A stretch of DNA of 64,000 bases from an uncultured delta proteobacterium. Its GTDB lineage: Bacteria > Myxococcota > Myxococcia > Myxococcales > Myxococcaceae. This document shows, piece after piece, positions 5,264 to 30,060 of the stretch (the first letter of the stretch is position 1; the number at the start of each line of letters is the position of its first letter). The position numbers and the translations under genes were made by a program. The notes under the pieces were generated by a model, which was not told the DNA's origin, made no database searches, and worked only from the letters and a program-made list of their open reading frames with translations. The stretch is taken from NCBI GenBank assembly GCA_963796055.1, contig CAWCKH010000005.1, forward strand, positions 160,001 to 224,000. Reading direction: 5' to 3'.

Positions 5264-5461
5264 ATGGCACCGCCGCCGGACAAGAGCCGCGCCACCGAGC
5301 CCGCGCTGTGGGCGTTCGCCGTGTCGCTGGTGCTGTTGGTGGGCCCGGCGCGGGTGCTCTGGGCCGCCCCGGGGCGCGGCTGGCTCGCCCCGTTCCTGCT
5401 CTGGGGGGTGGTGATCGCCCTCGGGGCCTGGGCCGTCCACCGCCCGAGCGCTCCGCCATGA
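5264..5461 (+). CDS. cbrX: CbrX-like small membrane protein, translationally coupled to the cbrA-like gene
   Basis: 65 aa with two hydrophobic segments and a W..PFLLW motif. Its stop overlaps the next start (ATGA 5458-5461), the arrangement known for Pseudomonas cbrX-cbrA. Confidence 0.65.
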   Translation: MAPPPDKSRATEPALWAFAVSLVLLVGPARVLWAAPGRGWLAPFLLWGVVIALGAWAVHRPSAPP

Positions 5462-8436
5462 GCCCGTCGATCGGCGTCCTGTTCGGGGTGGCCGTGGCCT
5501 ACCTCGGCCTGCTCTTCGGCGTGGCCTACGCGACGGAGCGCGGGCTGGTGCCGGCGCGGCTGGTCCGGCATCCGCTGACCTACGCGATCTCGCTCGGGGT
5601 GTACGCTACCTCGTGGACGTACTCCGGCAGCGTGGGCTTCGCCCGGAGCCACGGCTACGCCTTCCTCACCATCTACCTCGGGGTGACGCTGGCCTGCCTG
5701 CTGGTTCCGGTGCTCTGGGAGCCGGTCTTGCGCCTGTGCCGCGAGCACCAGCTCACCTCGCTGGCTGACCTCTTCGCCTTCCGCTTCCAGAGTCAGGGCG
5801 CTGGGGTGCTGGTGACGGTGTTCATGCTCGCCGGCAACCTTCCCTACCTGGCGCTGCAGATTCACGCGGTGACCGCGGCGTTCAAGGTGCTCGCCCAGGC
5901 CTCGCCCCCCAGCGGCATCGCGCTGATGTTCTGCGGGCTGGTGACCCTGTTCGCGCTGCTCTTCGGGGCACGGCACGTCACCCCGCGCGAGCGGCACGCC
6001 GGGCTGGGTGTGGCCATCGCCTTCGAGTCGCTGGTGAAGCTGCTGGCGCTGCTCACCGTGGCCCTGGTGGCGGTGACCAGCGTGTTCGGCGGCCTGGGCG
6101 GGCTGTCGCGCTGGCTGGCAGAGCACCCCGACGCGCTCGAGCGGGCCTACGGCCCGGTGCAGAGCGGGCCCTGGGCAACCCTCCTCCTGCTCGCATTCGC
6201 CGCGGCGTTCCTCCTGCCGCGCCAGTTCCACATGGCGTTCACCGAGTCGCTCGACGGGCGGGCGCTCAGGGTGGCGGCCTGGGCCTTCCCGCTCTTCCTG
6301 CTGCTGCTCAATCTCCCGGTCTTGCCGCTGCTCTGGAGCGGGACGGTGCGCTTCCCGGATGGGAACCCGGACAATCACGTGCTCGCGCTCGCCAGGAGCA
6401 GTGGACACCCCCTGGTGGGGGCGCTGGCGTTCGTCGGCGCCATCTCCGCGGCGAGCAGCATGCTCATCGTCGACACGCTGGCCCTGGCGGCGATGTGCCT
6501 CAACCACCTGGTGCTCCCCCGCACCGACCTCGCCCGCTCGGGCGACCTGTACGCGGGGCTGCTCTGGGCACGCCGGGCACTCATCGTCACCGTGCTCGCC
6601 CTCGGCTACGCCTTCAGCCGTCTGCTCGCCACCCGGCAGGGACTGGTGGAGATCGGCCTCATCTCCTTCGTCGCCGTGGTCCAGGTCCTGCCCGGCCTGC
6701 TGGCCCTCCTCTTCTGGCGCGGGGCGACACGCCAGGGATTCCTGGTGGGACTGTCGGCGGGGGTGGGGGTCTGGGCGGTCACGCTCTTCCTGCCCCTGCT
6801 GGCCCACGGGCGGCTCCTCCCGGCGGCGTTCGATCTGGCCTGGGTGTTCGGCATCCGTCCCGGCACCGAGCCGTGGAGCGCGAGCACGTTCTGGTCGCTG
6901 TTCCTCAACACCCTGCTCTTCGGCGGCGTCTCGCTCCTGACCCGCGCCACCGTGCGCGAGGAAGAGGCGGCGGTGGCCTGCACCCGCGGCGCAGCGCCCG
7001 GGCCGTGGATGCTGGAGCCGTCGAGCGCCCAGGAGTTCCAGGCGCGCCTGGCCCCGCTGCTCGGGGAGGACGCCGCCTCGACCGAGCTGACCCAGGCGCT
7101 GGCCGACCTGGACATGGTGCCCGGCGAGCGGCGGCCGGCGCAGCTGGGGAGACTGAGGGACCGCCTGCAGCGCAACCTCTCCGGCCTGATGGGGCCGCTG
7201 GTCGCCCGCTGGGTAGTGGACCGCAGCATCCGCATCAACCACGGCAAGCGGGCCCCGCTGAGCGACCGCATCCGCGCGCTGGAGGAGCAGCTCCGGGCGA
7301 GCCGGGCCCAGCTGCAGGGAGCGCCGGCCGAGCTGGAGGCCTACCGGCGCTACCTCCGGCGCGTGCTGGAGGACCTCCCGCTGGGCGTGTGCGCGCTCGG
7401 ACCCGACCGGGACGTCGTCATCTGGAACCGCGCGCTCGAGCACCTGAGCGGGCTCACCGCCCACGACGCGGTCGGTGCACGGCTCGACGTGCTGCCTGGT
7501 CCGTTGCCCGCCTCGGTCCGCGCCTTCGTCTCCGGCGCGGCGTCGCAGGAGGAGGTGCGGCTGCAGATGAGCGGCGCGAGCGAGCGCGCCTTCTCCCTGT
7601 CTCGAAGTCAGGTGCGCGAGCTGGGGAGCACCACCGGTGAGACCGCCGGGGTGGTGGTGCTGGTGGAGGACCTCACCGAGCGCAAGCTGCTGGCCGCGCA
7701 GGTGGCGCACCAGGACCGGCTGGCCTCGGTGGGTCGGCTCGCGGCCGGCGTGGCGCACGAGATCGGCAACCCGCTCACCGGCATCGCCTGCCTCGCCCAG
7801 AACCTCGTCCGCGAGCTCGGCGAGACCGACCTGCGCGACCGGGTGGGCCTCATCCTCCGCGAGACCCAGCGCATCGACGCCATCGTCCGGGTGCTGCTCG
7901 GCTACAGCCACGCCGGGGCCGCGGACGGGATGCACCAGGCCCCGGTGGATCTCCACCACTGCGTCGCGGAAGCCATCACCCTGGTCCACCTCGCGCGCGA
8001 GGCGAAGGGCGTTCCCTGTGAGAACGAGGTGCCCGCCGGCGTGTACGTCTCGGGGGACCGGCAGCGATTGATCCAGGTGTTCGTCAATCTCGTGTCGAAC
8101 GCGTGCGACGCGAGCCCGTCCGGCACCCCGGTAACGGTCGGTGCGCTCTCGACGACACAGGGCGTCAAGGTCTTCGTTCGCGACCGTGGCACTGGAATGG
8201 ACGAGTCGACCCGCGAACGGATGTTCGAACCTTTTTACACGACGAAGCCGCCGGGGCAGGGTACGGGTCTCGGGCTCCCGCTGGTCGCGGCCATCGTCCG
8301 CGAGCACGGGGGTACGCTCCGGGTGGAGAGCAGACCCGGCGCAGGGACGACGGTCGAGGTGGAGCTGCCGGGGGCGGAGGAGCCGGCGGCTCCGGGGACG
8401 AGGGTGGCCGAGGCCCTCGGGGGAGCACGCGCATGA
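5458..8436 (+). CDS. cbrA: CbrA-like sensor kinase: SLC5/SSF transporter domain, STAC, PAS, HisKA, HATPase
   Basis: LGVYATSWTYSGSVG, LPYLALQI, AIAFESLVKL and LLPRQFH in the SSF domain. PAS (LEDLPLGV..WNRALE), H-box GVAHEIGNPL, N-box QVFVNLVSNA and GTGLGL. Confidence 0.88.
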   Translation: MSPSIGVLFGVAVAYLGLLFGVAYATERGLVPARLVRHPLTYAISLGVYATSWTYSGSVGFARSHGYAFLTIYLGVTLACLLVPVLWEPVLRLCREHQLTSLADLFAFRFQSQGAGVLVTVFMLAGNLPYLALQIHAVTAAFKVLAQASPPSGIALMFCGLVTLFALLFGARHVTPRERHAGLGVAIAFESLVKLLALLTVALVAVTSVFGGLGGLSRWLAEHPDALERAYGPVQSGPWATLLLLAFAAAFLLPRQFHMAFTESLDGRALRVAAWAFPLFLLLLNLPVLPLLWSGTVRFPDGNPDNHVLALARSSGHPLVGALAFVGAISAASSMLIVDTLALAAMCLNHLVLPRTDLARSGDLYAGLLWARRALIVTVLALGYAFSRLLATRQGLVEIGLISFVAVVQVLPGLLALLFWRGATRQGFLVGLSAGVGVWAVTLFLPLLAHGRLLPAAFDLAWVFGIRPGTEPWSASTFWSLFLNTLLFGGVSLLTRATVREEEAAVACTRGAAPGPWMLEPSSAQEFQARLAPLLGEDAASTELTQALADLDMVPGERRPAQLGRLRDRLQRNLSGLMGPLVARWVVDRSIRINHGKRAPLSDRIRALEEQLRASRAQLQGAPAELEAYRRYLRRVLEDLPLGVCALGPDRDVVIWNRALEHLSGLTAHDAVGARLDVLPGPLPASVRAFVSGAASQEEVRLQMSGASERAFSLSRSQVRELGSTTGETAGVVVLVEDLTERKLLAAQVAHQDRLASVGRLAAGVAHEIGNPLTGIACLAQNLVRELGETDLRDRVGLILRETQRIDAIVRVLLGYSHAGAADGMHQAPVDLHHCVAEAITLVHLAREAKGVPCENEVPAGVYVSGDRQRLIQVFVNLVSNACDASPSGTPVTVGALSTTQGVKVFVRDRGTGMDESTRERMFEPFYTTKPPGQGTGLGLPLVAAIVREHGGTLRVESRPGAGTTVEVELPGAEEPAAPGTRVAEALGGARA

Positions 8437-9785
8437 GCCGCATCCTGGTGGTCGAGGACGAGGACATCATCCGCTCCGAGCTGGCGCGACTCCTCGCGCG
8501 GACCGGCCACGACGTGGTCGAGGCACGCTCGGTCCCGGAGGCCATGGGCGCGGGGGCCGCCGATGGATTCGACCTGGTCATCGCCGACCTGCGCCTGCCG
8601 GGCGAGCTGGGCACCACGCTCATCGACAGCTGCCGGCCGACGCCGGTGCTGGTGATGACCAGCTACGCCACGGTGCGTGCTGCGGTGGAGGCGATGCAGA
8701 AGGGCGCCGCCGACTTCGTGGCCAAGCCGTTCGACCACGACGAGTTCCTCCTGGTGATGGACCGGGTGCTGCGCCAGTCGCGCCTGCAGCGGCAGAACGC
8801 GGCCCTCAAGCAAGATCTGGAAAGGAACTACGCGGTGCACGGGATGGTGGGCAGCTGCTCGGCGATGCTCGAGGTCTTCGAGCGGGTGCGCAAGGTGGCC
8901 GCCACCGACGCCACGGTGCTCGTGCTCGGCGAGTCGGGCACCGGCAAGGAGCTGGTGGCCCGCGCCGTCCACGACCAGAGCAGCCGCCGCGACGCGCCGA
9001 TCATCGCCGTCAACTGCGCCTCGATCCCCGAGACGCTGATCGAGTCCGAGCTCTTCGGCCACGAGAGGGGCGCCTTCACCGGTGCGCACAAGGCGCATCC
9101 CGGCCTGGTCGAGGCGGCGGACGGCGGCACGCTCTTCCTCGACGAGATCGGCGAGCTGCCCCTGCCCGCCCAGGCCCGGCTGCTCCGGGTGATGCAGGAG
9201 GGCGAGGTCCGCCGGGTGGGCGCCACCGGGAGCCGGCGGGTCAACGTCCGGCTGATGGCCGCCACCCACCGGGACCTCCGGCAGATGTCGTACGACGGCC
9301 AGTTCCGGAACGACCTCTACTTCCGGCTGCGGGTGGTGGAGATCAGCCTCCCGCCGCTGCGGGCGCGCGGCTCGGACGTGCTCGAGCTCGCGGACTTCCT
9401 CCTGGCGAAGCTCTGCCGCCGGCTCAACAAGCCTCCCCTGGAGCTCACCTCGGAGGCGCGGCAGGCGATCTTCGAGCATCCCTGGCCGGGGAACGTGCGC
9501 GAGCTGGAGAACGCCCTCGAGCGCGCGGTCATCCTCTGCGACGGCGGGCAGATCACCCCCGACCTCCTGGCCATCGACGGGCCGCGCCCGGCCTCCGCTC
9601 CCGGAGCCGAGGGGGACGAGGCGAACGGCTCCGGTGCGCTCACCGAGTACTTCCGCCGCTTCGTGCTCGAGCATCAGGGGCACCTCTCCGAGACCGAGAT
9701 CGCCCGCCGGCTGGGCATCAGCCGGAAGGCGCTCTGGGAGAAGCGGGCCCGGCTGGGCATCCCCCGGGGCAAGCTCCCCGCCTGA
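8433..9785 (+). CDS. cbrB: CbrB-like sigma-54 response regulator (REC-AAA+-HTH)
   Basis: Receiver (VVEDE, DLRLP), GESGTGKE, GAFTGA, LFLDEIGE, WPGNVREL and C-terminal SETEIARRLGISRK.LWE. Coupled to the kinase. Confidence 0.88.
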   Translation: MSRILVVEDEDIIRSELARLLARTGHDVVEARSVPEAMGAGAADGFDLVIADLRLPGELGTTLIDSCRPTPVLVMTSYATVRAAVEAMQKGAADFVAKPFDHDEFLLVMDRVLRQSRLQRQNAALKQDLERNYAVHGMVGSCSAMLEVFERVRKVAATDATVLVLGESGTGKELVARAVHDQSSRRDAPIIAVNCASIPETLIESELFGHERGAFTGAHKAHPGLVEAADGGTLFLDEIGELPLPAQARLLRVMQEGEVRRVGATGSRRVNVRLMAATHRDLRQMSYDGQFRNDLYFRLRVVEISLPPLRARGSDVLELADFLLAKLCRRLNKPPLELTSEARQAIFEHPWPGNVRELENALERAVILCDGGQITPDLLAIDGPRPASAPGAEGDEANGSGALTEYFRRFVLEHQGHLSETEIARRLGISRKALWEKRARLGIPRGKLPA

Positions 9786-9861
9786 CTGAGACCGATCGTT
9801 GATGGGGGGGCCCGCAGGCCAGGGCGACCGGACCCGAGTGAAACCGGGGGCTCCGCGACCC

Positions 9862-9887
9862 CGTTACGTTCGGTAACGCCCTGTTCC
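9862..9887 (+). promoter_or_regulatory. Putative enhancer (UAS) for the CbrB-like activator
   Basis: CGTTAC-GTTCG-GTAACG palindrome at 9862-9878 plus a TGTTCC half-site 20 bp downstream. Confidence 0.7.
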
Positions 9888-9940
9888 GGAACGACACGCG
9901 CGCCCCGGGGGAAGTCCGCAACGGAACGTGAGGCGGCCCC

Positions 9941-9955
9941 TGGCAGATGGCTTGC
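9941..9955 (+). promoter_or_regulatory. sigma-54 -24/-12 promoter
   Basis: TGGCAGATGGCTTGC (GG-N10-GC with TTGC). Confidence 0.8.
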
Positions 9956-9975
9956 CTGTCGGATTGCTCTTCCCC

Positions 9976-11400
9976 GTGAGCACCCGTCTCGTCGAATACA
10001 GCCTGGAGGAGCGGCTGGAGGCCTGCCGCCGGCTCGCCGCCGAGAGCCTGGACAGCCCGCGGCGCTTCTGGCTCCGCGAGGCCGGACTCCTGGACTGGGT
10101 GCGTTCTCCGGAGGAGGCCTTCGTGGGGGAGATGAAGCACGGGGACGTGAGCTGGTTCTCCGGCGGCCTGCTCAACGCGGCCTGGAATGCGGTGGACCGC
10201 CACGCGGTCGCCTCCCCCGAGCGGACGGCGCTGGTGTGGGCCCGGCCCGAGGGTGACGTGGTGTCCTGGACCTTCCGCGAGCTGCGCCAGGCCTCCTCGC
10301 GGATGGCCCAGGTGCTCCTCTCCCAGGGCGTGCGGTGGGGCGACCGGGTGGTCGGTCACCTGCCCGAGACGCCGACCCTGGCGATGCTCCACCTCGGCTG
10401 CGCCCGCATCGGGGCGGTCCCGGTGGCGGTGCCGGTCCGGTCGGGGGCGGCGCTCGGCCGGGTGCTGCGTGCCACCCGGGGCAGGGTCCTGGTCACGGCC
10501 GACGAGGCGCCCCTGCCCGATGGACGGCTTCCGCTGTGGGAGCGGGTGGAGGACCTCCTCGGCGGCCTGGGGCGGGTGGAATCGGTCCTGGTCGAGCGGC
10601 GCACCGGCACTCCGGTGAGCCTGGTGTACGGGCGGGACCAGGAGCTGGGGACCGCGCTGGCCCGTGCCCGGCCGACCTGCTCGCTTCGCCCCTGCGACGG
10701 CGAGGACCCGCTGCTGCTCGTGCCGGGCCTCGAGGAGGGCCCGCCGGTGGTGCACGGGCTGGCGGGCTTCCTGCTCTGTGCCGCGCTCGGGCTCCGCGAG
10801 GCGGCGGGAGTCGGCCCGGGGGCCCAGGTGCTCTGCACCGAGGGGTTCTCCGGTTCACGCATCGACGTGCTCTGGGGGACGTGGGTGCTCGGCGGCGCCC
10901 TGGTGTTCGACGAGCGGGGAGATGGCGCTCAACGCCCCCGGGCGCTCGGCGTCACCCACCTCTTCGGGCCGCGGGGAGCGCTGGCGGCGGCGGGGCCGGG
11001 CGTGCTCGGGGCCTCGCTGGACGGCTCGGACGCCTCGGTGGCGCCGGTCTGGACGCCCGAGGGCGGGGGGATGCTGGCCGCGCGCTTCGGAGACCTCGGC
11101 GGCACGGCGCTCTTCGGGGTGGACCCCGTCCTGGTGGACACGGTGGGCCGCCGTGCGGGCGGGGCCGGAGCCGAGGGAGAGCTGTGCGTGAAGCGCTCCT
11201 GGCCTGCCCAGCCCCGCAGCCTCGAGCAGGACCACGCCGGGTACGTCGCCCAGCGGCTGGAGCGCTACCCCGGGCTCTACCGGACGTTGGTGCGATGCCG
11301 GCAGCTCCCCGACGGAGCGCTCGCTGCCATCGCGACTCCGCTCGGCGGCATGACCCCCAGCAACGTCTATCCCATCGAAGGCCCCATCGGACGCGCGTGA
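9976..11400 (+). CDS. Degenerate, C-terminally truncated acetyl-CoA synthetase-like protein (probable pseudoenzyme)
   Basis: Acs N-terminus is recognisable (FW..EA..LDW, WF.GG.LN..WNAVDRH, GDRV, CARIGAV). The P-loop YTSGxTGxPKG is replaced by VPGLEEGPP, and there is no GRxDD hinge or C-terminal domain. Start uncertain (GTG 9976). Confidence 0.75.
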   Translation: MSTRLVEYSLEERLEACRRLAAESLDSPRRFWLREAGLLDWVRSPEEAFVGEMKHGDVSWFSGGLLNAAWNAVDRHAVASPERTALVWARPEGDVVSWTFRELRQASSRMAQVLLSQGVRWGDRVVGHLPETPTLAMLHLGCARIGAVPVAVPVRSGAALGRVLRATRGRVLVTADEAPLPDGRLPLWERVEDLLGGLGRVESVLVERRTGTPVSLVYGRDQELGTALARARPTCSLRPCDGEDPLLLVPGLEEGPPVVHGLAGFLLCAALGLREAAGVGPGAQVLCTEGFSGSRIDVLWGTWVLGGALVFDERGDGAQRPRALGVTHLFGPRGALAAAGPGVLGASLDGSDASVAPVWTPEGGGMLAARFGDLGGTALFGVDPVLVDTVGRRAGGAGAEGELCVKRSWPAQPRSLEQDHAGYVAQRLERYPGLYRTLVRCRQLPDGALAAIATPLGGMTPSNVYPIEGPIGRA

Positions 11401-11428
11401 GGCGTGTTTCGCCGGCTCCGGCTTCCGG

Positions 11429-11466
11429 TGTTACCGAGGGCAACAAGGGGCGTTACGTTTTGTAGC
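11429..11466 (+). promoter_or_regulatory. Tandem putative enhancer sites
   Basis: TGTTAC-CGAGG-GCAACA and CGTTAC-GTTTT-GTAGC, 22 bp apart. Confidence 0.7.
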
Positions 11467-11522
11467 AGTGGTGCAGGAGCAACCGCGCTGCGTCACCCAG
11501 AGATTTCAAAGGTGAATCGGAC

Positions 11523-11537
11523 CGGTATGTCTCTTGC
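11523..11537 (+). promoter_or_regulatory. sigma-54 -24/-12 promoter
   Basis: CGGTATGTCTCTTGC (GG-N10-GC). Confidence 0.7.
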
Positions 11538-11588
11538 GGTGTGAGTGTGCTCGAGCCGAACCCCCCGCTTGCCCCGGAGAAGGGACCC

Positions 11589-11879
11589 ATGGCCGAGCTC
11601 ACCGAAGCGCAGAGGCACGAGTACTGGAATTACAACATCCGTCTCACCGTCATCCTCCTCATCATCTGGGCCTTCTTCGGGTTCATCCTCGGCGGGGTGC
11701 TCGCCGGCGAGCTGAACAACATCGTCATCGGGGGCTTCCCGCTCGGCTACTACATCGCCGCCCAGGGTTCGCTGGCGGTCTTCGTGATCGAGATCGCCGT
11801 CTACGCCCGGCTGATGAACAAGAAGGACCGCGAGTACGGACTCGAAGACTCCACCACCCCCGGCCCGAGGGTCGCGTGA
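11589..11879 (+). CDS. DUF4212 small subunit of a sodium:solute symporter
   Basis: YW..N..L...LL.IW and GFPLGYY.AAQGS..VF motifs. GGAGAAGGGA RBS before ATG 11589. Confidence 0.88.
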   Translation: MAELTEAQRHEYWNYNIRLTVILLIIWAFFGFILGGVLAGELNNIVIGGFPLGYYIAAQGSLAVFVIEIAVYARLMNKKDREYGLEDSTTPGPRVA

Positions 11880-13807
11880 TGACCACCGCCATCGCCCCCA
11901 CGCGCAAGTGGACGCTGAACAAGATCTTCGGGCTCTACACGGTCGCCTTCCTCGGAATGACGATCCTCATCGGCCTGGCCGAGAAGTTCCTCGGCCTGCC
12001 CAACCGGTGGATCGGCTGGCTCTTCATGGCACTGAGCATGGGGATCTACGTGCTGATCGGGATCCTCACCCGGACCACGGACTCGGACCAGTACTACGTG
12101 GCCGGGCGCGGGGTGCCTGCGATCTACAACGGGATGGCCACCGGGTCGGACTGGATGTCCGCCGCCTCGTTCATCTCCATGGCCGGAGCGCTCTCGGTGC
12201 AGGGCTTCAGCGGGCTCGCCTACGTGATGGGGTGGACCGGGGGGTACGTGCTGCTGGCAGTCTTCCTCGGCCCCTACCTCCGCCAGTTCGGCGCCTACAC
12301 CATTCCCGACTTCCTCGGAGCACGGTACGGCGGAAACACGGCCCGGTTGGTGGGCGTGCTCGCCGCGATTCTCTGCTCCTTCACCTACCTCATCGCCCAG
12401 GTCACCGGGGTCGGCCTGATCGTCAGCCGCTTCCTGGGGCTGCCGTTCAACGTCGGGGTCTTCGCGGGTCTCATCGGAGTGCTCTTCTGCTCGGTGCTGG
12501 GGGGGATGCGTTCGATCACCTGGACCCAGGTGGCTCAGTACATCATCCTCATCATCAGCTACCTGGTTCCGGTGGTGGTGCTGAGCTGGCAGCTCTTCAG
12601 CTTCCCGCTCCCCCAGTTCACCTACGGGCAGCTGCTGCAGCGAAACAGCGCGTCGGCGATCAAGGTGACCAACGACCCGGCCGAAGCGGCCACCCGCGCG
12701 GCCTGGAAGAAGGAAGCCGACGAGGCCGCCGCCAAGCTCAAGCAGCCGGCTCTCTCCGAGGCCGAGAGGGACAAGCTGACCGCCACGCAGAAGACGGGGG
12801 CGGCGCAGGCCAAGCCGCCCGCCGCGCCGGGGGCGACCATCGCCAACTACCTCACCGTGCCCAAGGGCGTGGGGATGTGGAACTTCCTGGCCCTCACCTT
12901 CTGCCTGATGGTGGGCACCGCAGGGCTGCCGCACATCTTGACCCGGTACTACACCACGCCCTCGGTGAGGGAAGCGCGAACCTCGGTGGGCTGGGGCCTG
13001 TTCTTCATCTTCCTCCTCTACTTTACCGCCCCGGCCTACGCCGCATTCGCCCGGTTCGTGGTCTACAGCCGGCTGGTCGGCACGCAGATCTCCGACCTCC
13101 CGCGCTGGGTGGCCTTGTGGAAACCCGCCGGCCTCTTCGACGTGGTGGACAAGATCGGCGACGGGGTGGTGCAGCTGGCGGACTTCGTCATCAAGAGCTC
13201 CGACTTCGTGGTGCTGGCGATGCCGGAGATGGCCGGGCTGCCGTTCGTGATCACCGGCCTGGTGATGGCCGGGGGCCTGGCCGCCGCGCTCTCCACCGCG
13301 GACGGCCTCCTGCTGACCATCGCCAACGCGATCTCCCATGACATGTACTACAAGGTGATCAATCCCAAGGCCCCGCTGATCGTCCGGCTCACGGTGACCA
13401 AGATTCTCCTGGTCGCGACCGCACTCATCGCCGCGGGCGTGGCCACCTTCCGTCTGGCAATCATCGTCGAGCTGGTGGCCTGGGCCTTCAGCCTCGCGGC
13501 GTCGTCCTTCTTCCCGGCACTGGTCATGGGCATCTGGTGGAAGCGGGCGAATCGACCGGGAGCGGTGGCCGGGATGCTGGTCGGCCTCGGCCTCACCCTC
13601 ATCTACATGACCGGCTCGCGCTTCTTCGGAATGTCCTGGTTCGGGACCGCCACCGTGGCCTCGGGGGTGTTCGGGATCCCCCTCGGCTTCCTCACCATCT
13701 ACGTGGTCTCGCTCCTCACAGCCGCGCCGCCCCAGCGGGTCCAGGAACTGGTGGCCGACGTGCGCTATCCCAAGGCCACCATCTCCTCGACGGAGTACGC
13801 CCACTAG
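11879..13807 (+). CDS. actP: Sodium:solute symporter, VC_2705/ActP-like (monocarboxylate/acetate permease)
   Basis: YYVAGR, NGMATGSDWMSAASF, GWTGGY, GGMRSITWTQVAQY, GTAGLPHIL and AAALSTADGLL. Confidence 0.88.
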   Translation: MTTAIAPTRKWTLNKIFGLYTVAFLGMTILIGLAEKFLGLPNRWIGWLFMALSMGIYVLIGILTRTTDSDQYYVAGRGVPAIYNGMATGSDWMSAASFISMAGALSVQGFSGLAYVMGWTGGYVLLAVFLGPYLRQFGAYTIPDFLGARYGGNTARLVGVLAAILCSFTYLIAQVTGVGLIVSRFLGLPFNVGVFAGLIGVLFCSVLGGMRSITWTQVAQYIILIISYLVPVVVLSWQLFSFPLPQFTYGQLLQRNSASAIKVTNDPAEAATRAAWKKEADEAAAKLKQPALSEAERDKLTATQKTGAAQAKPPAAPGATIANYLTVPKGVGMWNFLALTFCLMVGTAGLPHILTRYYTTPSVREARTSVGWGLFFIFLLYFTAPAYAAFARFVVYSRLVGTQISDLPRWVALWKPAGLFDVVDKIGDGVVQLADFVIKSSDFVVLAMPEMAGLPFVITGLVMAGGLAAALSTADGLLLTIANAISHDMYYKVINPKAPLIVRLTVTKILLVATALIAAGVATFRLAIIVELVAWAFSLAASSFFPALVMGIWWKRANRPGAVAGMLVGLGLTLIYMTGSRFFGMSWFGTATVASGVFGIPLGFLTIYVVSLLTAAPPQRVQELVADVRYPKATISSTEYAH

Positions 13808-14890: not shown

Positions 14891-17713
14891 GTGCTCCGGG
14901 ACTGGGTCGTCATCTCCGTCGCCTGCGCCTACCTGGGGCTCCTCTTCGCGATCGCCTACTACGGTGACCGGCGCGCCGACCGCGGGCGGAGCCTCATCGC
15001 GAACCCGTACATCTACTCGCTGTCGCTCGCGGTCTACGCGACCGCGTGGACTTTCTACGGCTCGGTCGGGCGCGCCGTCTCCACCGGCATCGGGTTCCTG
15101 CCCATCTACATCGGCCCGACGCTCATGTGCCTTCTGTGGTGGATCCTGCTGCGGAAGATCATCCTCATCAGCAAGGTCCACCGGATCACGTCGCTGGCGG
15201 ACTTCATCGCTTCCCGGTACGGCAAGAGCGCCCTCGTCGCGGGGCTCGTCACCGTCATCGCGGTGATCGGGATTCTCCCCTACATCTCGCTCCAGCTGAA
15301 GGCGATCTCCACCGCTTTCACGATCGTCCACTCGCACGACGTGGCGGTCGTCGGCGCGGGCCACGGCGGGCCGTTCCTCGGCGACACCGCGCTGTACGCG
15401 GCGCTCATCCTCGCCGCCTTCACCATCATTTTCGGGACCCGCCACCTCGACGCCTCGGAGCGACACGAGGGGATGGTCGCGGCGATCGCCTTCGAGTCGC
15501 TGGTGAAGCTCGTCGCCTTCCTGGCGGTGGGCGCGTTCGTGACCTGGGGCATGTTCGACGGGTTCCGGGACGTCTTCACGCGCTCCCGCGAGCTACCCGG
15601 GGTCGAGGCGCTCTTCGTCATCGGGGGAACGGGCGACGGGCACACGGGCATCCTGGCCTCCCTCTACTCCGCGACCTTCTTCGCCATGCTCGCGATCCTG
15701 TTCCTGCCCCGGCAGTTCCAGGTCGCGGTGGTCGAGAACGTCGACGTCGACCACGTGAAGACCGCGATCTGGCTGTTCCCGCTCTACTTGCTGGTCATCA
15801 ACTTCTTCGTGCCGGCGATCGCCTTCGGGGGGATGCTCCACTTCGCCGGCACTCCGGTCGATCCGGACACGTACGTGCTCACCCTGCCGCTCTCCAGGGG
15901 CCAGAACGGGCTCGGGCTGCTCGTCTTCATCGGAGGGCTCTCCGCGGCGACCGGAATGGTGATCGTCGAGACGATCGCGCTCTCCACCATGGTCTGCAAC
16001 GACCTCGCCATGCCGCTGCTGCTGCGCTGGCGCGCGCTGCGGCTGAACCAGCGGCCGGATCTCACCGGACTCCTGCTGGGCATCCGGCGCGGGGCGATCC
16101 TGGTGATGCTGCTCCTCGGCTACCTCTACTTCCGGATAGCGGGGGAGGCCTACGCGCTGGTGTCGATCGGCCTCATCTCCTTCGCCGCGGTGGCGCAGTT
16201 CGCACCCGCCTGCCTGGGCGGGCTCTTCTGGAAGGGCGGTACGCGCGCCGGCGCCCTCGCCGGCCTCTCCGCCGGATTCCTGGTCTGGCTCTACACCCTC
16301 CTCGTCCCGGCGTTCGCGAAGTCGGGCTGGGTGCCCATGTCCATCGTCGAGGCGGGGCCGTTCGGGGTGGAGGCCCTGAGGCCCCTGCAGCTCTTCGGGC
16401 TCACCGGCCTCGACCAGATCACCCACGGGATGATCTGGTCCATGCTGGCCAACGTGGGGGCCTACATCGGGTTCTCGCTGTCGACCACCCAGAGCGCGGT
16501 CGAGCACAGCCAGGCGACGCTGTTCGTGGACGTGTTCAAGCACTCCGCCGCCGGCACCGGGTCGCTCTTCTGGCGGGGCGGCGTGTCGGTCCAGGAGCTG
16601 CGCGCGCTCCTCTCGCGCTTCCTCGGGGCGGACAAGGCCGACGAGGTGCTGGAGGGCTACGCGCGCGATCGTCGCCTGCTGTCGGCGTGGGAGGTCGACG
16701 CCGACGCGAACCTCATCCAGTTCGCCGAGACGAAGCTGGCCGGCGCCATCGGCGGAGCGTCGGCCCACGCGATGGTGGCGTCGGTCGTGAAGGAGGCCCC
16801 GCTCACCATGGACGAGGTGATGTCCATCCTCGACGAGGCCTCGCAGATCATGAAGTACAGCCGGGAGCTGGAGAAGACGTCGCGGGAGCTCACCAGCGCG
16901 TACGCGGAGCTCAGGAGCGCAAACGAGCAGCTGAAGGAGCTGGACAGGATGAAGGACGACTTCGTCTCCCACGTCTCGCACGAGCTCCGCACCCCTCTCA
17001 CCTCCATCCGCTCGGCCTCCGAGATTCTCCACGACCATCCCGAGCTCGATGCCGCCACCCGCACCAAGTACCTGTCGGTCGTCATCCAGGAGGCGGAGCG
17101 GCTCACCCGCCTGATCAACCAGGTCCTCGACCTCTCGAAGATCGAGGCCGGCCGGGTCGAGTGGCGGATCGGGGAGGTGAGCCCGCGCGAGGTGGTCGAG
17201 CACGCCGTGGCGGCGACGAGCCAGCTCTTCGCCCAGAAGGCGGCGACGCTGGAGGTCGACGTGCCGGTGGAGGCCCCGCGGATCCTCGCCGATCGGGACC
17301 GCCTCGTGCAGGTGGTGATCAACCTCCTCTCGAACGCGGCCAAGTTCTGCGCCGACCCGGGCGGCCGGGTCTCCATCTCGCTGCGCGCGGAGCCGGGGGC
17401 GGTCCGCGTCGACGTGCGTGACAACGGGATGGGGATCGCGGCGAAGGACCAGGAGCTCATCTTCGAGAAGTTCCGCCAGGGGGGCGACACCCTCACCACC
17501 AAGCCGAGGGGAACCGGCCTGGGGCTCCCGATCAGCCGCGAGATCATCCACCACTTCGGGGGGCGCCTCTGGGTGGAGAGCGAGCCCGGGAGAGGAGCCA
17601 CCTTCTCGTTCGTCATCCCGCTCCGCCGTCAGCCGGAGGTGGGCGGTGGCGACGTGCGGGACGCTCGCGCCGCTGCGCTCGGCGCGTCCGGGACGGAGGC
17701 CGGTGCCAGCTGA
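14891..17713 (+). CDS. SLC5/SSF-STAC histidine kinase (CrbS/MxtR/PrlS-related; no PAS or REC)
   Basis: YSLSLAVYATAWTFYGSVG, ITSLADFIASRYGK, LPRQFQVAVVEN, STAC (E.KLAGAIGGASA), SHELRTPLTSI, NLLSNA and GTGLGL. Confidence 0.9.
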   Translation: MLRDWVVISVACAYLGLLFAIAYYGDRRADRGRSLIANPYIYSLSLAVYATAWTFYGSVGRAVSTGIGFLPIYIGPTLMCLLWWILLRKIILISKVHRITSLADFIASRYGKSALVAGLVTVIAVIGILPYISLQLKAISTAFTIVHSHDVAVVGAGHGGPFLGDTALYAALILAAFTIIFGTRHLDASERHEGMVAAIAFESLVKLVAFLAVGAFVTWGMFDGFRDVFTRSRELPGVEALFVIGGTGDGHTGILASLYSATFFAMLAILFLPRQFQVAVVENVDVDHVKTAIWLFPLYLLVINFFVPAIAFGGMLHFAGTPVDPDTYVLTLPLSRGQNGLGLLVFIGGLSAATGMVIVETIALSTMVCNDLAMPLLLRWRALRLNQRPDLTGLLLGIRRGAILVMLLLGYLYFRIAGEAYALVSIGLISFAAVAQFAPACLGGLFWKGGTRAGALAGLSAGFLVWLYTLLVPAFAKSGWVPMSIVEAGPFGVEALRPLQLFGLTGLDQITHGMIWSMLANVGAYIGFSLSTTQSAVEHSQATLFVDVFKHSAAGTGSLFWRGGVSVQELRALLSRFLGADKADEVLEGYARDRRLLSAWEVDADANLIQFAETKLAGAIGGASAHAMVASVVKEAPLTMDEVMSILDEASQIMKYSRELEKTSRELTSAYAELRSANEQLKELDRMKDDFVSHVSHELRTPLTSIRSASEILHDHPELDAATRTKYLSVVIQEAERLTRLINQVLDLSKIEAGRVEWRIGEVSPREVVEHAVAATSQLFAQKAATLEVDVPVEAPRILADRDRLVQVVINLLSNAAKFCADPGGRVSISLRAEPGAVRVDVRDNGMGIAAKDQELIFEKFRQGGDTLTTKPRGTGLGLPISREIIHHFGGRLWVESEPGRGATFSFVIPLRRQPEVGGGDVRDARAAALGASGTEAGAS

Positions 17714-17724
17714 ACGGAGCCAGC

Positions 17725-18096
17725 ATGAAGAAGAGAGTCCTGATCGCCGACGACGAGCCGAACATCGTCATGTCACTCCAGTTCCTCATGGAGTTCGAGG
17801 GGTACGAGGTGCGGACCGCGGCCGACGGGGAGACGGCCCTCCAGATCCTCCGCGACTTCCGTCCCGACCTGGTCCTGCTCGATGTGATGATGCCAAAGCG
17901 AAACGGCTACGAGATCTGCCAGGCCGTGCGCGAGACGCCCGCCCTGGCGGGCATCAAGGTGGTGATGCTGACCGCGAAGGGGCGTGACATCGACGCCGAG
18001 AAGGGCCTCGCCCTCGGCGCCGATTCCTACGTCACGAAGCCGTTCGCCACGAAGGAGCTGGTGGCCACGGTGAAGGCGTTGCTCGGCGACGCGTGA
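17725..18096 (+). CDS. Stand-alone response regulator receiver
   Basis: IADDE, LLDVMMP, MLTA and YVTKPF motifs; no output domain. Confidence 0.9.
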   Translation: MKKRVLIADDEPNIVMSLQFLMEFEGYEVRTAADGETALQILRDFRPDLVLLDVMMPKRNGYEICQAVRETPALAGIKVVMLTAKGRDIDAEKGLALGADSYVTKPFATKELVATVKALLGDA

Positions 18097-20288: not shown

Positions 20289-20308
20289 GTCTCTCGAGCG
20301 ACGGCAGC

Positions 20309-21772: not shown

Positions 21773-21904
21773 CCTCGGGAGCGCGCGGTTGGGCCGAGCA
21801 GGTTTTCAGATTCCTCCCACTCCCGCCATCCGGTGGCAGGGGTTGAACCCATCGGAGGCGCCTCTGGGGTGGCCCCGACCTCGGAATCTCTTGAGGATGG
21901 CATT

Positions 21905-23371: not shown

Positions 23372-23467
23372 CGTTGATCGCGGTCTCGGCCGGCCGAGGT
23401 TCCCAGGTTCCACCCCCCCGCGCCATGCCGATGGAGCAGCGGCCACGCCCCGGCTAACCTCCGGCGG

Positions 23468-24870: not shown

Positions 24871-24896
24871 TGTTACCGAAGGTAACGGACTGTTAC
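24871..24896 (+). promoter_or_regulatory. Putative enhancer sites
   Basis: TGTTAC-CGAAG-GTAACG plus a TGTTAC half-site 20 bp downstream. Confidence 0.75.
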
Positions 24897-24957
24897 CGAT
24901 CGGGGCAGACCGAGCCACCTGGTGACGCTCTGCCAACGGATTACGAGGCGTGCAACT

Positions 24958-24972
24958 TGGCTTGAAAGTTGC
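24958..24972 (+). promoter_or_regulatory. sigma-54 -24/-12 promoter
   Basis: TGGCTTGAAAGTTGC. Confidence 0.8.
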
Positions 24973-25016
24973 GGTCTGCGGAAGTTGCCCACCCGTCTTC
25001 TGAAGGAGGCAGACCG

Positions 25017-26651
25017 ATGGCCGTCGCCGCGTCGTCCCTGCCCATGATCGACAAGAGCGAAGAGCGTCGCGTCATCTTCGCGTCGAGCCTGGGTACCGTC
25101 TTCGAGTGGTACGACTTCTACATCTACGCCGTGCTGGCGCCCTTCTTCGCCAGCGTGTTCTTCCCCCCGGGGAACCAGACGACGGCCCTCCTCAATGCTT
25201 TCGTGAACTACGCGGCAGGCTTCCTGGTCCGCCCGTTCGGGGCGCTGTTCTTCGGCCGGATCGGCGACCTGGTCGGCCGCAAGTACACCTTCCTCGTCAC
25301 CATCACGGTCATGGGTCTGTCCACGGCGCTGGTCGGCTTTCTCCCCACCTACTCCTCGGTCGGCATGCTCGCGCCGCTGCTGCTGCTCCTGCTCCGGCTG
25401 GCGCAGGGCCTGGCGCTGGGCGGTGAGTACGGCGGTGCGGCCACCTACGTGGCCGAGCACGCCCCGGAGAACAAGCGTGGCGGCCACACCGCCTGGATCC
25501 AGACCACCGCCACGGTGGGTCTGCTGCTGGCGCTGGTGGTGATCCTGGCGTGCCGCAGCGGGATGACCACCGCGGACTTCGCGAGCTGGGGCTGGCGCAT
25601 TCCGTTCATCCTCTCGATCATCCTCCTGGTCATCTCCATCTACATCCGGCTCAAGCTGAACGAATCGCCGATGTTCCGGCGGATGAAGGAAGAGGGCAAG
25701 GGAAGCAAGGCCCCGCTGTCCGAGAGCTTCGGGCAGTGGAGCAACCTCAAGATCGTGATCCTCGCCCTCCTCGGCGCGACTGCCGGACAGGGCGTGGTCT
25801 GGTACACCGGCCAGTTCTATGCGCTGTTCTTCCTCCAGACGACGCTGAAGGTCCCGTTCGAGACGGTGTACATGCTCATCGCCATCTCGCTGATCATCGG
25901 CACCCCGTTCTTCCTCGTCTTCGGCCGGCTCTCGGACCGGATCGGCCGCAAGTGGATCATGATGGCCGGGTGCCTGCTCGGCGTGCTCACCTACTTCCCG
26001 CTCTTCAAGGGGCTGACCCACTACGCCAACCCGGCGCTGGAGGCGTTCAACGCCAGCAACAAGATCACGCTGACCGCCACCAACTGCCAGACGCACATCT
26101 TCGCCCTGCCCACCACCAAGTACAGCGAGTGTGATCGCGTCCGGAACATCCTCGGCTCGAGGAGCGTGAACTACGACAACATCGAAGGCGCTCCAGGCTC
26201 CATGCCGGTGGTGCGGATCAACGACAAGGAGATCAGCTCTCCGGCCTCGATGGACGCGGCCGGGATCAAGGCCTTCGAAGGGCAGATCACCGGTGCCCTC
26301 ACTGCCTCAGGCTATCCGGCGAAGTTCGACCCGGCGGGCCTGAACTGGCCGATGGTGCTTCTCATCCTGCTGATCATGGTGATCTACGTCACCATGGTGT
26401 ACGGCCCCATCGCCGCGTTCCTGGTGGAGCTGTTCCCCACCCGGATCCGGTACACGTCGATGTCGCTGCCGTACCACATCGGCAACGGATGGTTCGGCGG
26501 CATGCTCCCTCTCACCGCGTCGGCCCTGGTGGCGGCGAACGGGGACATCTACTTCGGCCTCTGGTACCCGATCATCGTCGCGGCGATGACCTTCGTGATC
26601 GGCTCGCTCATGATCAAGGAGACCAAGGACCACAAGATCGGCGTGGTGTAG
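25017..26651 (+). CDS. MFS metabolite:H+ symporter (MHS family)
   Basis: ASSLGTVFEWYDF, RPFGA..FG.IGD.VGRK, QGLALGGEYGGA, WGWRIPF and ELFPTRIRY. GAAGGAGG RBS. Confidence 0.93.
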   Translation: MAVAASSLPMIDKSEERRVIFASSLGTVFEWYDFYIYAVLAPFFASVFFPPGNQTTALLNAFVNYAAGFLVRPFGALFFGRIGDLVGRKYTFLVTITVMGLSTALVGFLPTYSSVGMLAPLLLLLLRLAQGLALGGEYGGAATYVAEHAPENKRGGHTAWIQTTATVGLLLALVVILACRSGMTTADFASWGWRIPFILSIILLVISIYIRLKLNESPMFRRMKEEGKGSKAPLSESFGQWSNLKIVILALLGATAGQGVVWYTGQFYALFFLQTTLKVPFETVYMLIAISLIIGTPFFLVFGRLSDRIGRKWIMMAGCLLGVLTYFPLFKGLTHYANPALEAFNASNKITLTATNCQTHIFALPTTKYSECDRVRNILGSRSVNYDNIEGAPGSMPVVRINDKEISSPASMDAAGIKAFEGQITGALTASGYPAKFDPAGLNWPMVLLILLIMVIYVTMVYGPIAAFLVELFPTRIRYTSMSLPYHIGNGWFGGMLPLTASALVAANGDIYFGLWYPIIVAAMTFVIGSLMIKETKDHKIGVV

Positions 26652-28461: not shown

Positions 28462-29649
28462 CTAGAAGCCGACCTGGAACTGCAGGAAGCCCTGCCACTG
28501 CGTGTTGCCGACTTCCCTGTCGGCGTAAATGAACTCGGCCGTGACTTTGTAGGTGTTCTGCAGGACGTACCACGAGAGGCCGCCATGGTAGGCCCGCGTC
28601 CAGCCACCGGCCGCGTTCCCGCTGTAGACGAAGCCGTCCGGAATCGCCCAGTCGAACGCCACGAACGGGCCGATGACCCCGAAGCGCATCGACACCAGCG
28701 CATCGAGCTGCTTCTTGGAGAGGTTGCTGTCGGAGCCTGCCCAGATCCGCCAGGCCGCGATGTCAACGCTGAGCTCGAGGTCGTCGCTGAACGGAATGTC
28801 GGCGAAGACGTCGAAGGCGAAGGTCGTCCAGCTCGTCATGCCGGTCGGTACCGCGGTCCCGCCGGCGGCGCTGGTGTACCCGGTCGTCCGGACTGAGTTG
28901 GTCTGGAAGTCACCCAGCACGCCGATGCTGACGATCGGGGACTTGGCGAAGCAGACCTGGCAGAACGCGTAGCCGTCCTCCTTGCCCGCGATGTTGAAGC
29001 GCAGAGTTCCAGCGAACCGCGGCGCGTCGCCCGGGTTGATTCCCTCCGCGGCGGGGGTGGTCGCGATCGTCTGCTCTCCATTGAAGACGCCGAGGCGGTA
29101 GTAGAGCCGGTCGTCCAGGAGGAGCCCGCGGAGCTCGACGCCCACATCGCGGGTGCCCCGCTGGCTGTTCGGCGCGTAGGCGGTCGGGAAGAGGCTCACG
29201 CTCGCGAACTTCGCACCCGAGGTCAGCGGGTTGTGCAGGTTCGGGAGGAGCATCAGGCCGGCGTCGATGAGCAGCGCCTTGCTGACCTTGTAGGTGGCCA
29301 GCGCATCGAGGAGGTAGAGGTTGTTGTTCCAGGAGACGCCGTCGGCGTTGGCCCCCGTCGGCGGGCCACCCTTCACCACCGCGCCGTAGCTGATGTCGGT
29401 TTCGATGAAGAACCCGATGTTTTCGTTGAACTGGCCACCGAGCAGGATGCGCGCCCGCCGGAGCAGAAAGTCGTTCGACGGGTCGCTCCCCGAGCCGGCC
29501 CCGTCCTGCGTGATGCGGTACTGCGCCTGAATCAGGGCACCGACGTCGACGAAGCCCTTCTCGCTGAACGAGATCTTCGCAGCGTTCGCCGTGCCCGCTG
29601 CCATCAGGCACAGCACTCCGAGACACGACTTCCAGGTTTGTGACCTCAT
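28462..29649 (-). CDS. Outer-membrane porin (OprO/OprP-like or short-chain amide porin)
   Basis: Signal peptide (ANA-A), FLLRRARI, RDVGV, YRLGVFNG and C-terminal beta-signal LQFQVGF. Confidence 0.8.
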   Translation of the reverse strand: MRSQTWKSCLGVLCLMAAGTANAAKISFSEKGFVDVGALIQAQYRITQDGAGSGSDPSNDFLLRRARILLGGQFNENIGFFIETDISYGAVVKGGPPTGANADGVSWNNNLYLLDALATYKVSKALLIDAGLMLLPNLHNPLTSGAKFASVSLFPTAYAPNSQRGTRDVGVELRGLLLDDRLYYRLGVFNGEQTIATTPAAEGINPGDAPRFAGTLRFNIAGKEDGYAFCQVCFAKSPIVSIGVLGDFQTNSVRTTGYTSAAGGTAVPTGMTSWTTFAFDVFADIPFSDDLELSVDIAAWRIWAGSDSNLSKKQLDALVSMRFGVIGPFVAFDWAIPDGFVYSGNAAGGWTRAYHGGLSWYVLQNTYKVTAEFIYADREVGNTQWQGFLQFQVGF

Positions 29650-29736
29650 TCGTCCCCTCTCCACGTGAATGCTGCCCCAGGGCACACGATGACCTAGCGC
29701 CAGTCGGCGACCAACTTTTTTTTGGCCCCGCTGTAG

Positions 29737-29751
29737 GCAATCCACGTTCCA
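29737..29751 (-). promoter_or_regulatory. sigma-54 -24/-12 promoter of the porin gene
   Basis: Minus strand TGGAACGTGGATTGC. Confidence 0.75.
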
Positions 29752-29815
29752 GGGGCCTGCCCCTGCGTAGCTCAAGGACTTGCGCGCAGGGGGACCGCTC
29801 CCGGCGTGTGGATGG

Positions 29816-29841
29816 GTAACGGAGCGTTACCAACGGTAACG
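29816..29841 (-). promoter_or_regulatory. Putative enhancer sites
   Basis: CGTTAC-CAACG-GTAACG palindrome plus a GTAAC half-site 20 bp toward the promoter. Confidence 0.75.
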
Positions 29842-29987: not shown

Positions 29988-30060
29988 TGAGAGCGGAGGG
30001 AATCGAACCCACAACCTATGGATTAAGAGTCCATTGCTCTGCCAATTGAGCTACGCTCCC
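29988..30060 (-). tRNA. tRNA-Lys(CTT)
   Basis: GGGAGCG TAGCTCAATTGGCAGAGC ATGGA-CT-CTT-AA-TCCAT ... GGTTCGATTCC CGCTCTC-A; 73 nt; CCA not encoded. Confidence 0.93.

Follow-up and report, generated by a model that had tools for sequence, protein, structure and literature searches.

What stands behind cbrB in a myxobacterium, at the place where the small RNA (sRNA) gene crcZ is described for Pseudomonas (PMC8871633), is the question raised by a stretch of 64,000 nucleotides from an uncultured delta proteobacterium (assembly GCA_963796055.1, contig CAWCKH010000005.1, positions 160,001 to 224,000; hereafter the window). The gene found there, on the forward strand at 9976..11400, is predicted from its motifs to encode a truncated, catalytically dead homologue of acetyl-CoA synthetase (Acs) of 474 amino acids (aa), which consists of the Acs N-terminal domain and a low-confidence tail with a conserved GPIGRA-type motif. 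An earlier reading of this DNA, made without database searches (the sequence-only reading), had reported an uninterrupted frame of about 474 codons, a P-loop reading EDPLLLVPGLEEGPP and the letters YRTLV at the TGD motif; all three were found again, the open reading frame (ORF) running from GTG at 9976 to TGA at 11400 through 474 codons without an internal stop.

The window protein is matched in Pfam by ACAS_N at residues 19-72 and by AMP-binding over model positions 2-100 only, the first quarter of that model, and no match to AMP-binding_C was found in it. Its best sequence matches among solved structures are acetyl-CoA synthetases throughout; against TIGR02188 (an NCBIfam equivalog with a cut-off of 724.95 bits), it scores 164.7 bits and its relative P0039 scores 238.1 bits, both below the cut-off. 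Motifs were compared in an alignment of 50 family proteins (the window protein, P0069 and 48 of the 57 database hits described below, 9 partial or frameshifted-looking hits being excluded), 41 intact Acs and 5 full-length dead Acs; the intact rows were picked partly by motif presence, so that their motif counts hold partly by construction, and the numbers and roles of Acs residues other than Arg191, Arg584 and Trp414 are those that we take to apply at the mapped positions. No family member has the canonical ATP-binding P-loop YTSG(S/T)TGxPKG, the equivalent of Thr264, Thr268, Lys272, Trp413, Gln415 or Asp500, or the ribose-binding Asp of (S/T)GD, for which the family consensus is YRTG(L/E)R. 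The GRxDD hinge had been read as missing, which holds for the DD pair (0/50), whereas the hinge Arg (TGR) is kept in 22 of the 50 members. The C-terminal domain with the catalytic, acetylated Lys (PKTRSGK), likewise read as missing, is absent from all 50 proteins, whose chains end 35-42 residues past the TGD position; the GEPIN segment is missing through an internal deletion of 23-30 residues, and the residues of the adenine site have been lost, as has the GWITGH pocket wall. At the CoA site, the equivalent of Phe163 in the FxGFS loop is found in no member, that of Gly165 in 7 and that of Arg191 in 3, and Arg584 is deleted along with the C-terminal domain. Arg191 and Arg584 are described as binding CoA, and Trp414 as part of the acyl pocket (PMC10455477). 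The proposal that the protein senses acyl-CoA at the canonical site is thereby weakened, because that site is gone. Conservation is found elsewhere: 13 of 15 invariant columns are retained in the first 110 residues, the Trp414 equivalent is present in 50/50 members and the Glu417 equivalent in 44/50, 63 positions are at least 95% conserved within the family yet unlike most intact Acs, and the GPIGRA-type motif follows a variable C-terminal linker in 48 of the 50. The low Lys content of the window protein (0.42%) was discarded as a signal, lying only at the 6th percentile among long ORFs of this GC-rich genome.

A protein search returned 67 hits, 57 of them without the C-terminal Pfam domain, and full-length members of the family are 469-551 aa long with 49-92% identity. 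In a profile search just three representatives scored above 330 bits, followed by full-length Acs, and a genome search located 17 loci in two clades, with products 82-91% and 50-53% identical to the window protein, in metagenome-assembled genomes titled Myxococcaceae, Myxococcota or uncultured delta proteobacterium. Within the window's genus the gene is present in 10 of 12 other genomes, the two that lack it being 68% and 75% complete and missing the cbrB orthologue too; in a sample of 401 genomes from the phylum, members are confined to genera g1 and g50, the family being known from two genera of Myxococcaceae (genome sets of different counts overlap and are not summed here). Four genomes with high-scoring Acs by the family profile were rejected as carriers, three having intact core motifs and the fourth (G335) a damaged C-terminal motif. 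The ESM Atlas yielded AMP-binding clusters only, the first of which, a 100-member Myxococcota cluster, may be the truncated family. Many of the database entries P0005-P0056 carry the name acetyl-CoA synthetase, a label by which a false acetate-activating step would be counted in these genomes, and many are called from an ATG or GTG within the sigma-54 box (N-termini MAC... or MAW...), probably mis-starts.

Two intact reference points were available for judging whether this family is decaying: the neighbouring regulatory genes and the Acs paralogues. The ratio of nonsynonymous to synonymous substitution (dN/dS; Nei-Gojobori) is 0.123 in clade 1 (10 sequences, with L030 left out for its frameshifts and only codons up to 440 taken from L023) and 0.175 in clade 2 (7 sequences); pairwise values range from 0.08 to 0.21, with no pair above 0.21, the pairs not being independent and dS being large. 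The corresponding values in clades 1 and 2 are 0.127 and 0.088 for CbrA and 0.100 and 0.055 for CbrB, and the two intact Acs paralogues of the genus give 0.100 and 0.096. Variation is greatest at third codon positions, where 81-89% of columns vary, compared with 15-30% at second positions, and the reading frame is maintained between clades that are about 50% identical. Simple decay is rejected, because the dN/dS of 0.12-0.18 is similar to that of CbrA and of intact Acs. The sequence-only reading had preferred a selected pseudoenzyme over decay, and the search for orthologues beside cbrB in Myxococcota agrees with it, giving a conserved truncated family with dN/dS far below 1.

The fold was examined with AlphaFold, and the N-terminal Acs fold that had been read from the letters is kept in the model. 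With family rows only in the alignment, the predicted local distance difference test score (pLDDT) was 70.7; when 9 full-length Acs rows were added, it rose to 87.7, with a predicted template modelling score of 0.89 and values below 50 for residues 1-6 and 457-474 only. The latter model superimposes on residues 13-520 of Salmonella Acs (1pg4) with Z 43.4 and a root-mean-square deviation of 2.4 over 451 residues; it covers that part of Acs only, and the protein therefore corresponds to the N-terminal domain ending at the hinge, plus a short tail. Motifs, model and substitution pattern together mark the family as a predicted pseudoenzyme, in which catalytic motifs are lost, the fold is retained and purifying selection acts. 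Pseudoenzymes of the Acs fold are already known as a kind; the truncated cbrAB-linked family is undescribed in the literature searched and narrow in distribution.

Where the gene came from can be read from other myxobacteria, in which the slot behind cbrB holds an intact acs in 2 of 12 regions in one set, in 7 of 20 in another and in more elsewhere; it is often preceded by a porin gene and followed by actP or a major facilitator superfamily (MFS) gene. In the phylogenetic tree, the truncated clade (support 100/100, stem of 2.13 changes per site) is nested among cbr-linked intact Acs (98/96), apart from the housekeeping Acs of its genome, its exact sister being unsure owing to the long stem. 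No intact cbr-type acs copy was found among the search hits in the window's genus, while the genome carries two unlinked Acs-type genes with intact motifs (the C3 paralogue did not match the TGD pattern used); these observations indicate that the orthologue itself died and that the dead gene descends, as judged from sequence, from an ancestral myxobacterial cbrAB-linked acs. The name "crcZ position" given earlier is right in that crcZ sits behind cbrB in Pseudomonas; the link to CrcZ falls away, since the slot ancestrally holds an intact acs. As had been read, no A-rich AANAANAA motif (Hfq/Crc) occurs on either strand of 9786-11600, and Rfam gave no match in 5000-31000 besides a tRNA. An identity as a CrcZ- or CrcY-type sRNA was rejected on these two absences and on the protein-level selection. 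Nothing points to a crcZ that was replaced, and the framing as a crcZ slot is misleading.

The same slot has apparently lost its enzyme more than once. At two loci (L038 and L228), cbrA-cbrB are followed by a gene for a full-length Acs, in which the P-loop is broken and the catalytic Lys replaced by Arg, and then by DUF4212 and an ActP-like permease; this second dead family is found at L038:9941-11827 and L228:6001-7800 and among the proteins P0217-P0220 and P0070. Both Lys of PKTRSGK are replaced by Arg and Trp309 by Cys; the Arg191, Phe163 and Gly165 equivalents are kept in 5/5 proteins, and the Trp414 equivalent is missing in 2/5. The full-length form would thus be a better candidate for a CoA or acyl-CoA sensor than the window protein. 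In the careful tree, it groups with intact P0221 and P0225 (92/98), separate from the truncated clade, and the tree favours separate origins of the two dead forms; a single clade of all dead forms was not rejected by the AU test (p 0.244). A first quick tree that united all dead forms was put down to long-branch joining and not trusted. A third, recent inactivation is possibly represented by G335 (L311:5439-7271), whose cbrB-linked acs reads LPKTPSGT at the catalytic Lys motif and shares its Trp-to-Cys change with the full-length dead family.

All 17 family loci lie behind cbrA-cbrB; L027 includes just the end of cbrB, and a small inverted porin-like gene separates it from the dead acs there. 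On the forward strand of the window, the upstream genes comprise a CbrX-like two-helix membrane peptide (5264..5461) that overlaps the cbrA start and is found at 17 of 18 loci inspected, a CbrA homologue with SLC5-STAC-PAS-histidine kinase architecture (5458..8436) and a CbrB homologue (8433..9785), a REC-AAA+-HTH sigma-54 activator encoded next to cbrA. The CbrA homologue matches residues 6-593 of PDB 10ED, the P. putida CbrXA structure (PMC13022988), with E 2e-151, and the pocket residues Y51, W55, F71, Y75, K196 and F406 of P. putida CbrA are retained, with S53, A56 and F248 changed. By sequence, these genes are genuine CbrXAB homologues. The CbrX-like peptide also gives a weak pairwise match (E 0.005) to a peptide of Amphritea, a plasmid of which carries cbrX-cbrA-cbrB as well, with a dksA-gluQ-...-pcnB gene order.

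Ahead of the dead acs, a predicted CbrB enhancer at 9863..9897 (no strand assigned) consists of a perfect GTTAC-N5-GTAAC palindrome at 9863-9877 and a degenerate second site at 9883-9897, and it is followed by a forward-strand sigma-54 -24/-12 box at 9941..9955; the GTG start lies 17-21 nt after the box in all family loci. The enhancer and sigma-54 promoter proposed from the letters are thus present, and palindrome and box are kept in 17/17 family loci, at a spacing of 62-63 bp in clade 1 and 73-75 bp in clade 2, a difference of one helical turn. The half-sites resemble the Pseudomonas CbrB consensus, given as TGTTAC-N12-14-GTAACA (PMC8871633), with a shorter spacing (N5). Neither an intrinsic terminator nor a sigma-70 promoter turned up in 9700-11700, and 16 of 18 loci have no Shine-Dalgarno-like word before the GTG; control by CbrB and a near-leaderless mRNA are predicted. 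In the clade-2 loci (L031-L037), an ATG-TGA start-stop overlaps the GTG start (ATGTGA) in 7/7 cases, an arrangement that could tune translation. Allowing at most one mismatch, the palindrome occurs at 9 sites in the 5.5 Mb genome, and 4 of the 9 have a downstream sigma-54 box (0.22 expected), all within the window locus; of the 5 palindromes in the window, two precede DUF4212-ActP and one each the dead acs, the MFS gene and the porin gene. The scan gave no site at the two intact Acs-type genes of the genome. Two of the 9 hits lie in an intergenic stretch of short imperfect repeats with GTAACGAGGTGTC(T/C)GGCACC-like units (G000:C4:1031370-1031660), for which no sigma-54 target was found.

The explanation that we favour, tentatively and at somewhat less than an even chance, is that CbrB induces the dead Acs as an accessory protein, which would bind the CbrA/CbrB pair and adjust its output. 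CbrA would phosphorylate CbrB, as in Pseudomonas, and CbrB would turn on the four sigma-54 promoters predicted from the shared palindrome (dead acs, MFS permease, ActP-like permease and porin); the folded Acs N-domain, translated from its predicted near-leaderless GTG start, might then attach to either CbrA or CbrB as a subunit that gives feedback or shares in sensing, and acetate activation would be left to the Acs paralogues elsewhere in the genome whose motifs predict activity. That the product acts through protein binding is our inference, and such a new role fits the 63 family-specific conserved positions and the GPIGRA-type motif. CbrA and CbrB are preferred as partners because cbrXAB are the sole neighbours common to the truncated and full-length dead forms, because the permease varies (mostly MFS in the former, ActP-like in the latter) and because kinase feedback has a precedent: DctA, a regulon member, is described as co-sensor of its own kinase DcuS (PMC6978683). 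Protein contacts through the STAC domain have been a matter of speculation (PMC9100948). Complex prediction for the cytoplasmic part of CbrA (505-975) with the dead Acs gave no answer (score 0.00) and was used neither for nor against binding.

Several observations weigh against a regulatory subunit of CbrA/CbrB. Adjacency to cbrAB is not evidence of contact, because it was inherited from the ancestral cbrAB-acs cluster. A co-evolving surface was sought in CbrA and CbrB and none was found, carrier-specific invariant residues numbering only 4 and 1, and the changes in CbrA and CbrB of G293, which lacks the gene, fall mostly at variable sites. Three relatives, G293 (90% complete), G031 (96%) and G202 (100%), keep cbrAB and the MFS gene without a family member, so that the protein is not required for the CbrAB system. 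Repeated loss or damage of acs in this slot, with no acs within the fetched stretch in G326, G317, G261 and G249 and the catalytic Lys lost in G335, implies that the enzyme is dispensable there, which lessens the need to assume a hidden function in common. Two family loci are frameshifted, L023 once near the 3' end and L030 several times, and four of the database proteins that were dropped appear frameshifted; in L030 assembly errors are suggested, because neighbouring genes are frameshifted as well. A wider version of the favoured explanation, which we consider rather doubtful, gives the Acs encoded behind cbrXAB a standing role as co-sensor of the SLC5-STAC kinase: even the active enzyme would report acetate activation to CbrA/CbrB, and this second job would have outlived catalysis in both dead forms, the full-length one with its CoA site and the truncated one. 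If true, the dead family would be a natural separation-of-function variant showing that transceptors of the CbrA/CrbS type are tuned by their own target enzyme.

A function in transport is the next explanation to consider. The protein could serve the co-regulated carboxylate uptake machinery (porin plus MFS or ActP-like permease) as an accessory subunit: acetate activation would once have been coupled to the transporter, and what is left of it would now regulate or stabilize the permease. The rest of the predicted regulon consists entirely of uptake genes. The gene after the dead acs in the 17 loci is an MFS homologue in 14, a putative antiporter followed by an MFS gene in one, DUF4212-ActP in one and the contig end in one; in L028 and in the window an MFS homologue is also part of the cluster, and G238 and G318 carry an intact acs paired with an MFS gene. 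Yet the permease is served by an enhancer and a promoter of its own, the three relatives named above retain the MFS gene without the dead acs, and the full-length dead form is paired with another transporter family, which leaves this explanation unlikely. The scaffold for ActP, or partner of the DUF294 proteins, that had been proposed earlier does not hold as a general role: the ActP/DUF294 block is a local feature, since only one of the 17 related loci besides the window has it after the gene.

Remodelling of the old pocket could instead have produced a stand-alone sensor or buffer of a small ligand (carboxylate, acyl-adenylate or CoA thioester) with a partner outside the locus, an alternative that we judge to be similarly unlikely. 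The full conservation of the Trp414 equivalent and the near conservation of the Glu417 equivalent speak for it, as do new conserved charged residues beside the old site (R295/D297 and R436/R440) and the CoA-site residues kept by the full-length dead lineage. The truncated family itself, however, has lost the canonical CoA residues, those of the adenine site and the pocket wall formed by GWITGH, and Trp414 may be kept for packing, its equivalent being missing from two of the five full-length dead proteins.

Two further roles are each improbable. In a prozyme-like arrangement, the dead protein would regulate the intact housekeeping Acs, or the acetylation machinery, through heteromers; the genome does carry intact Acs paralogues, and the control of active paralogues by dead ones is described as a common pseudoenzyme role (PMC5201418). 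These paralogues are, however, unlinked, distant (29-32% identity) and placed on a separate branch of the tree. Moreover, bacterial Acs are generally monomeric, and the C-terminal domain of Acs, which acetyltransferases recognize, is missing here. A new, non-adenylating enzyme activity on the Acs N-domain would be in keeping with the long stem followed by slow evolution and with the 63 newly fixed residues, a pattern that fits any neofunctionalization; against it, no recognizable catalytic constellation was found, and the former P-loop is variable across the family. A decaying pseudogene, or a locus acting only as RNA in the manner of a CrcZ-like decoy, could account for the slot being lost or damaged in several lineages and for a few frameshifted copies, but is highly improbable, being largely refuted by the low dN/dS and the third-position variation and opposed by the frame kept between clades, the missing A-rich Hfq/Crc motif and the missing Rfam match.

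The locus was also compared with known systems. With AcsA (TIGR02188; Salmonella Acs, PDB 1pg4/2p2f), the window protein shares the N-terminal fold, the ACAS_N region, the Trp414 equivalent and, with cbrAB-linked acs, its ancestry; it differs in being without the P-loop, FxGFS, GWITGH, GEPIN, TGD, GRxDD, the C-terminal domain and the catalytic Lys. The Pseudomonas cbrX-cbrA-cbrB-crcZ locus has homologous CbrX, CbrA and CbrB, GTTAC/GTAAC half-sites and a separately transcribed sigma-54 target behind cbrB, whereas the target in this myxobacterial host is an acs-derived protein gene instead of an sRNA, no crcZ follows cbrB, the half-sites are spaced by N5 and the predicted regulon is small and centred on uptake. 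In the CrbS/R (MxtR/ErdR) acetate switch, an SLC5-STAC kinase controls acs and actP (PMC5715377), and an SLC5-STAC kinase near acs, an ActP-like permease and CBS/nucleotidyltransferase genes are common to both systems (PMC5715377); here, in contrast, the kinase is of the CbrA type and acts with a sigma-54 activator, and the Acs of the regulon is predicted to be dead. The description of CrbS/R in PMC5715377 mentions no comparable accessory protein. Another acyl-CoA-synthetase fold in a non-enzymatic setting is matched by the window protein in chains of 7aih (E 2e-6) and 6hiv (E 4e-5). These chains are mL69, a kinetoplastid mitoribosomal subunit, which is distant, eukaryotic, structural and outside any bacterial two-component regulon. 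A dead Acs next to cbrAB or in a CbrAB regulon was described nowhere in the literature searched, subscription papers and supplements lying mostly outside the search. The signal of SLC5-STAC kinases (CbrA, CrbS/MxtR) and the role of STAC are left open in the accounts consulted (PMC5715377; PMC9100948; bioRxiv 10.64898/2026.09.07.749794), and a selected non-catalytic Acs under predicted CbrB control is a candidate accessory protein for tuning such kinases. In addition, although CbrAB has been called unique to Pseudomonadaceae in a review (PMC8871633), CbrXAB is found here outside that family, wired to an acetate-type uptake module instead of CrcZ.

Downstream of the dead acs, a second enhancer pair (11430-11444 and 11452-11466) and a sigma-54 box (11523-11537), spanning 11430..11537 on the forward strand and found in the palindrome and sigma-54 scan, are predicted to drive DUF4212 and the following sodium/solute symporter of the VC_2705 family (ActP-like; 11589..13807, forward strand) separately from the dead acs; among the family loci, this pair of genes occurs in the window and L023 only. 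An enhancer (24872), a sigma-54 box (24958) and an MHS-type MFS transporter, the usual downstream neighbour in relatives, extend over 24872..26651 on the forward strand. On the reverse strand, a porin-like gene (28462..29840), whose homologues in other myxobacteria stand between cbrB and intact acs, has the same palindrome upstream (29826-29840), and the tRNA gene (29988-30060, reverse strand) lies just upstream of the porin promoter. After the ActP-like permease, at 14891-23473, the window carries a second SLC5-type kinase, a lone receiver, a HAMP/PAS protein with a DEDDh exonuclease domain and two CBS-DUF294 nucleotidyltransferases, a block that among family loci is found only there and in L023. 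Complete cbrX-cbrA-cbrB sets are widespread in Myxococcaceae, with a CbrB orthologue in 90 of 208 genomes, and are wired to porin-acs-actP/MFS; they are found in the window at 5264-9785 and at L021-L038, L163-L173 and L213-L227. Damaged P-loops were also seen in other Acs homologues (P0071, P0072, P0073, P0074 and P0090), which include a 1273-aa tandem of two synthetase units, the second with an altered P-loop, and one homologue fused to a C-terminal domain of unknown type.

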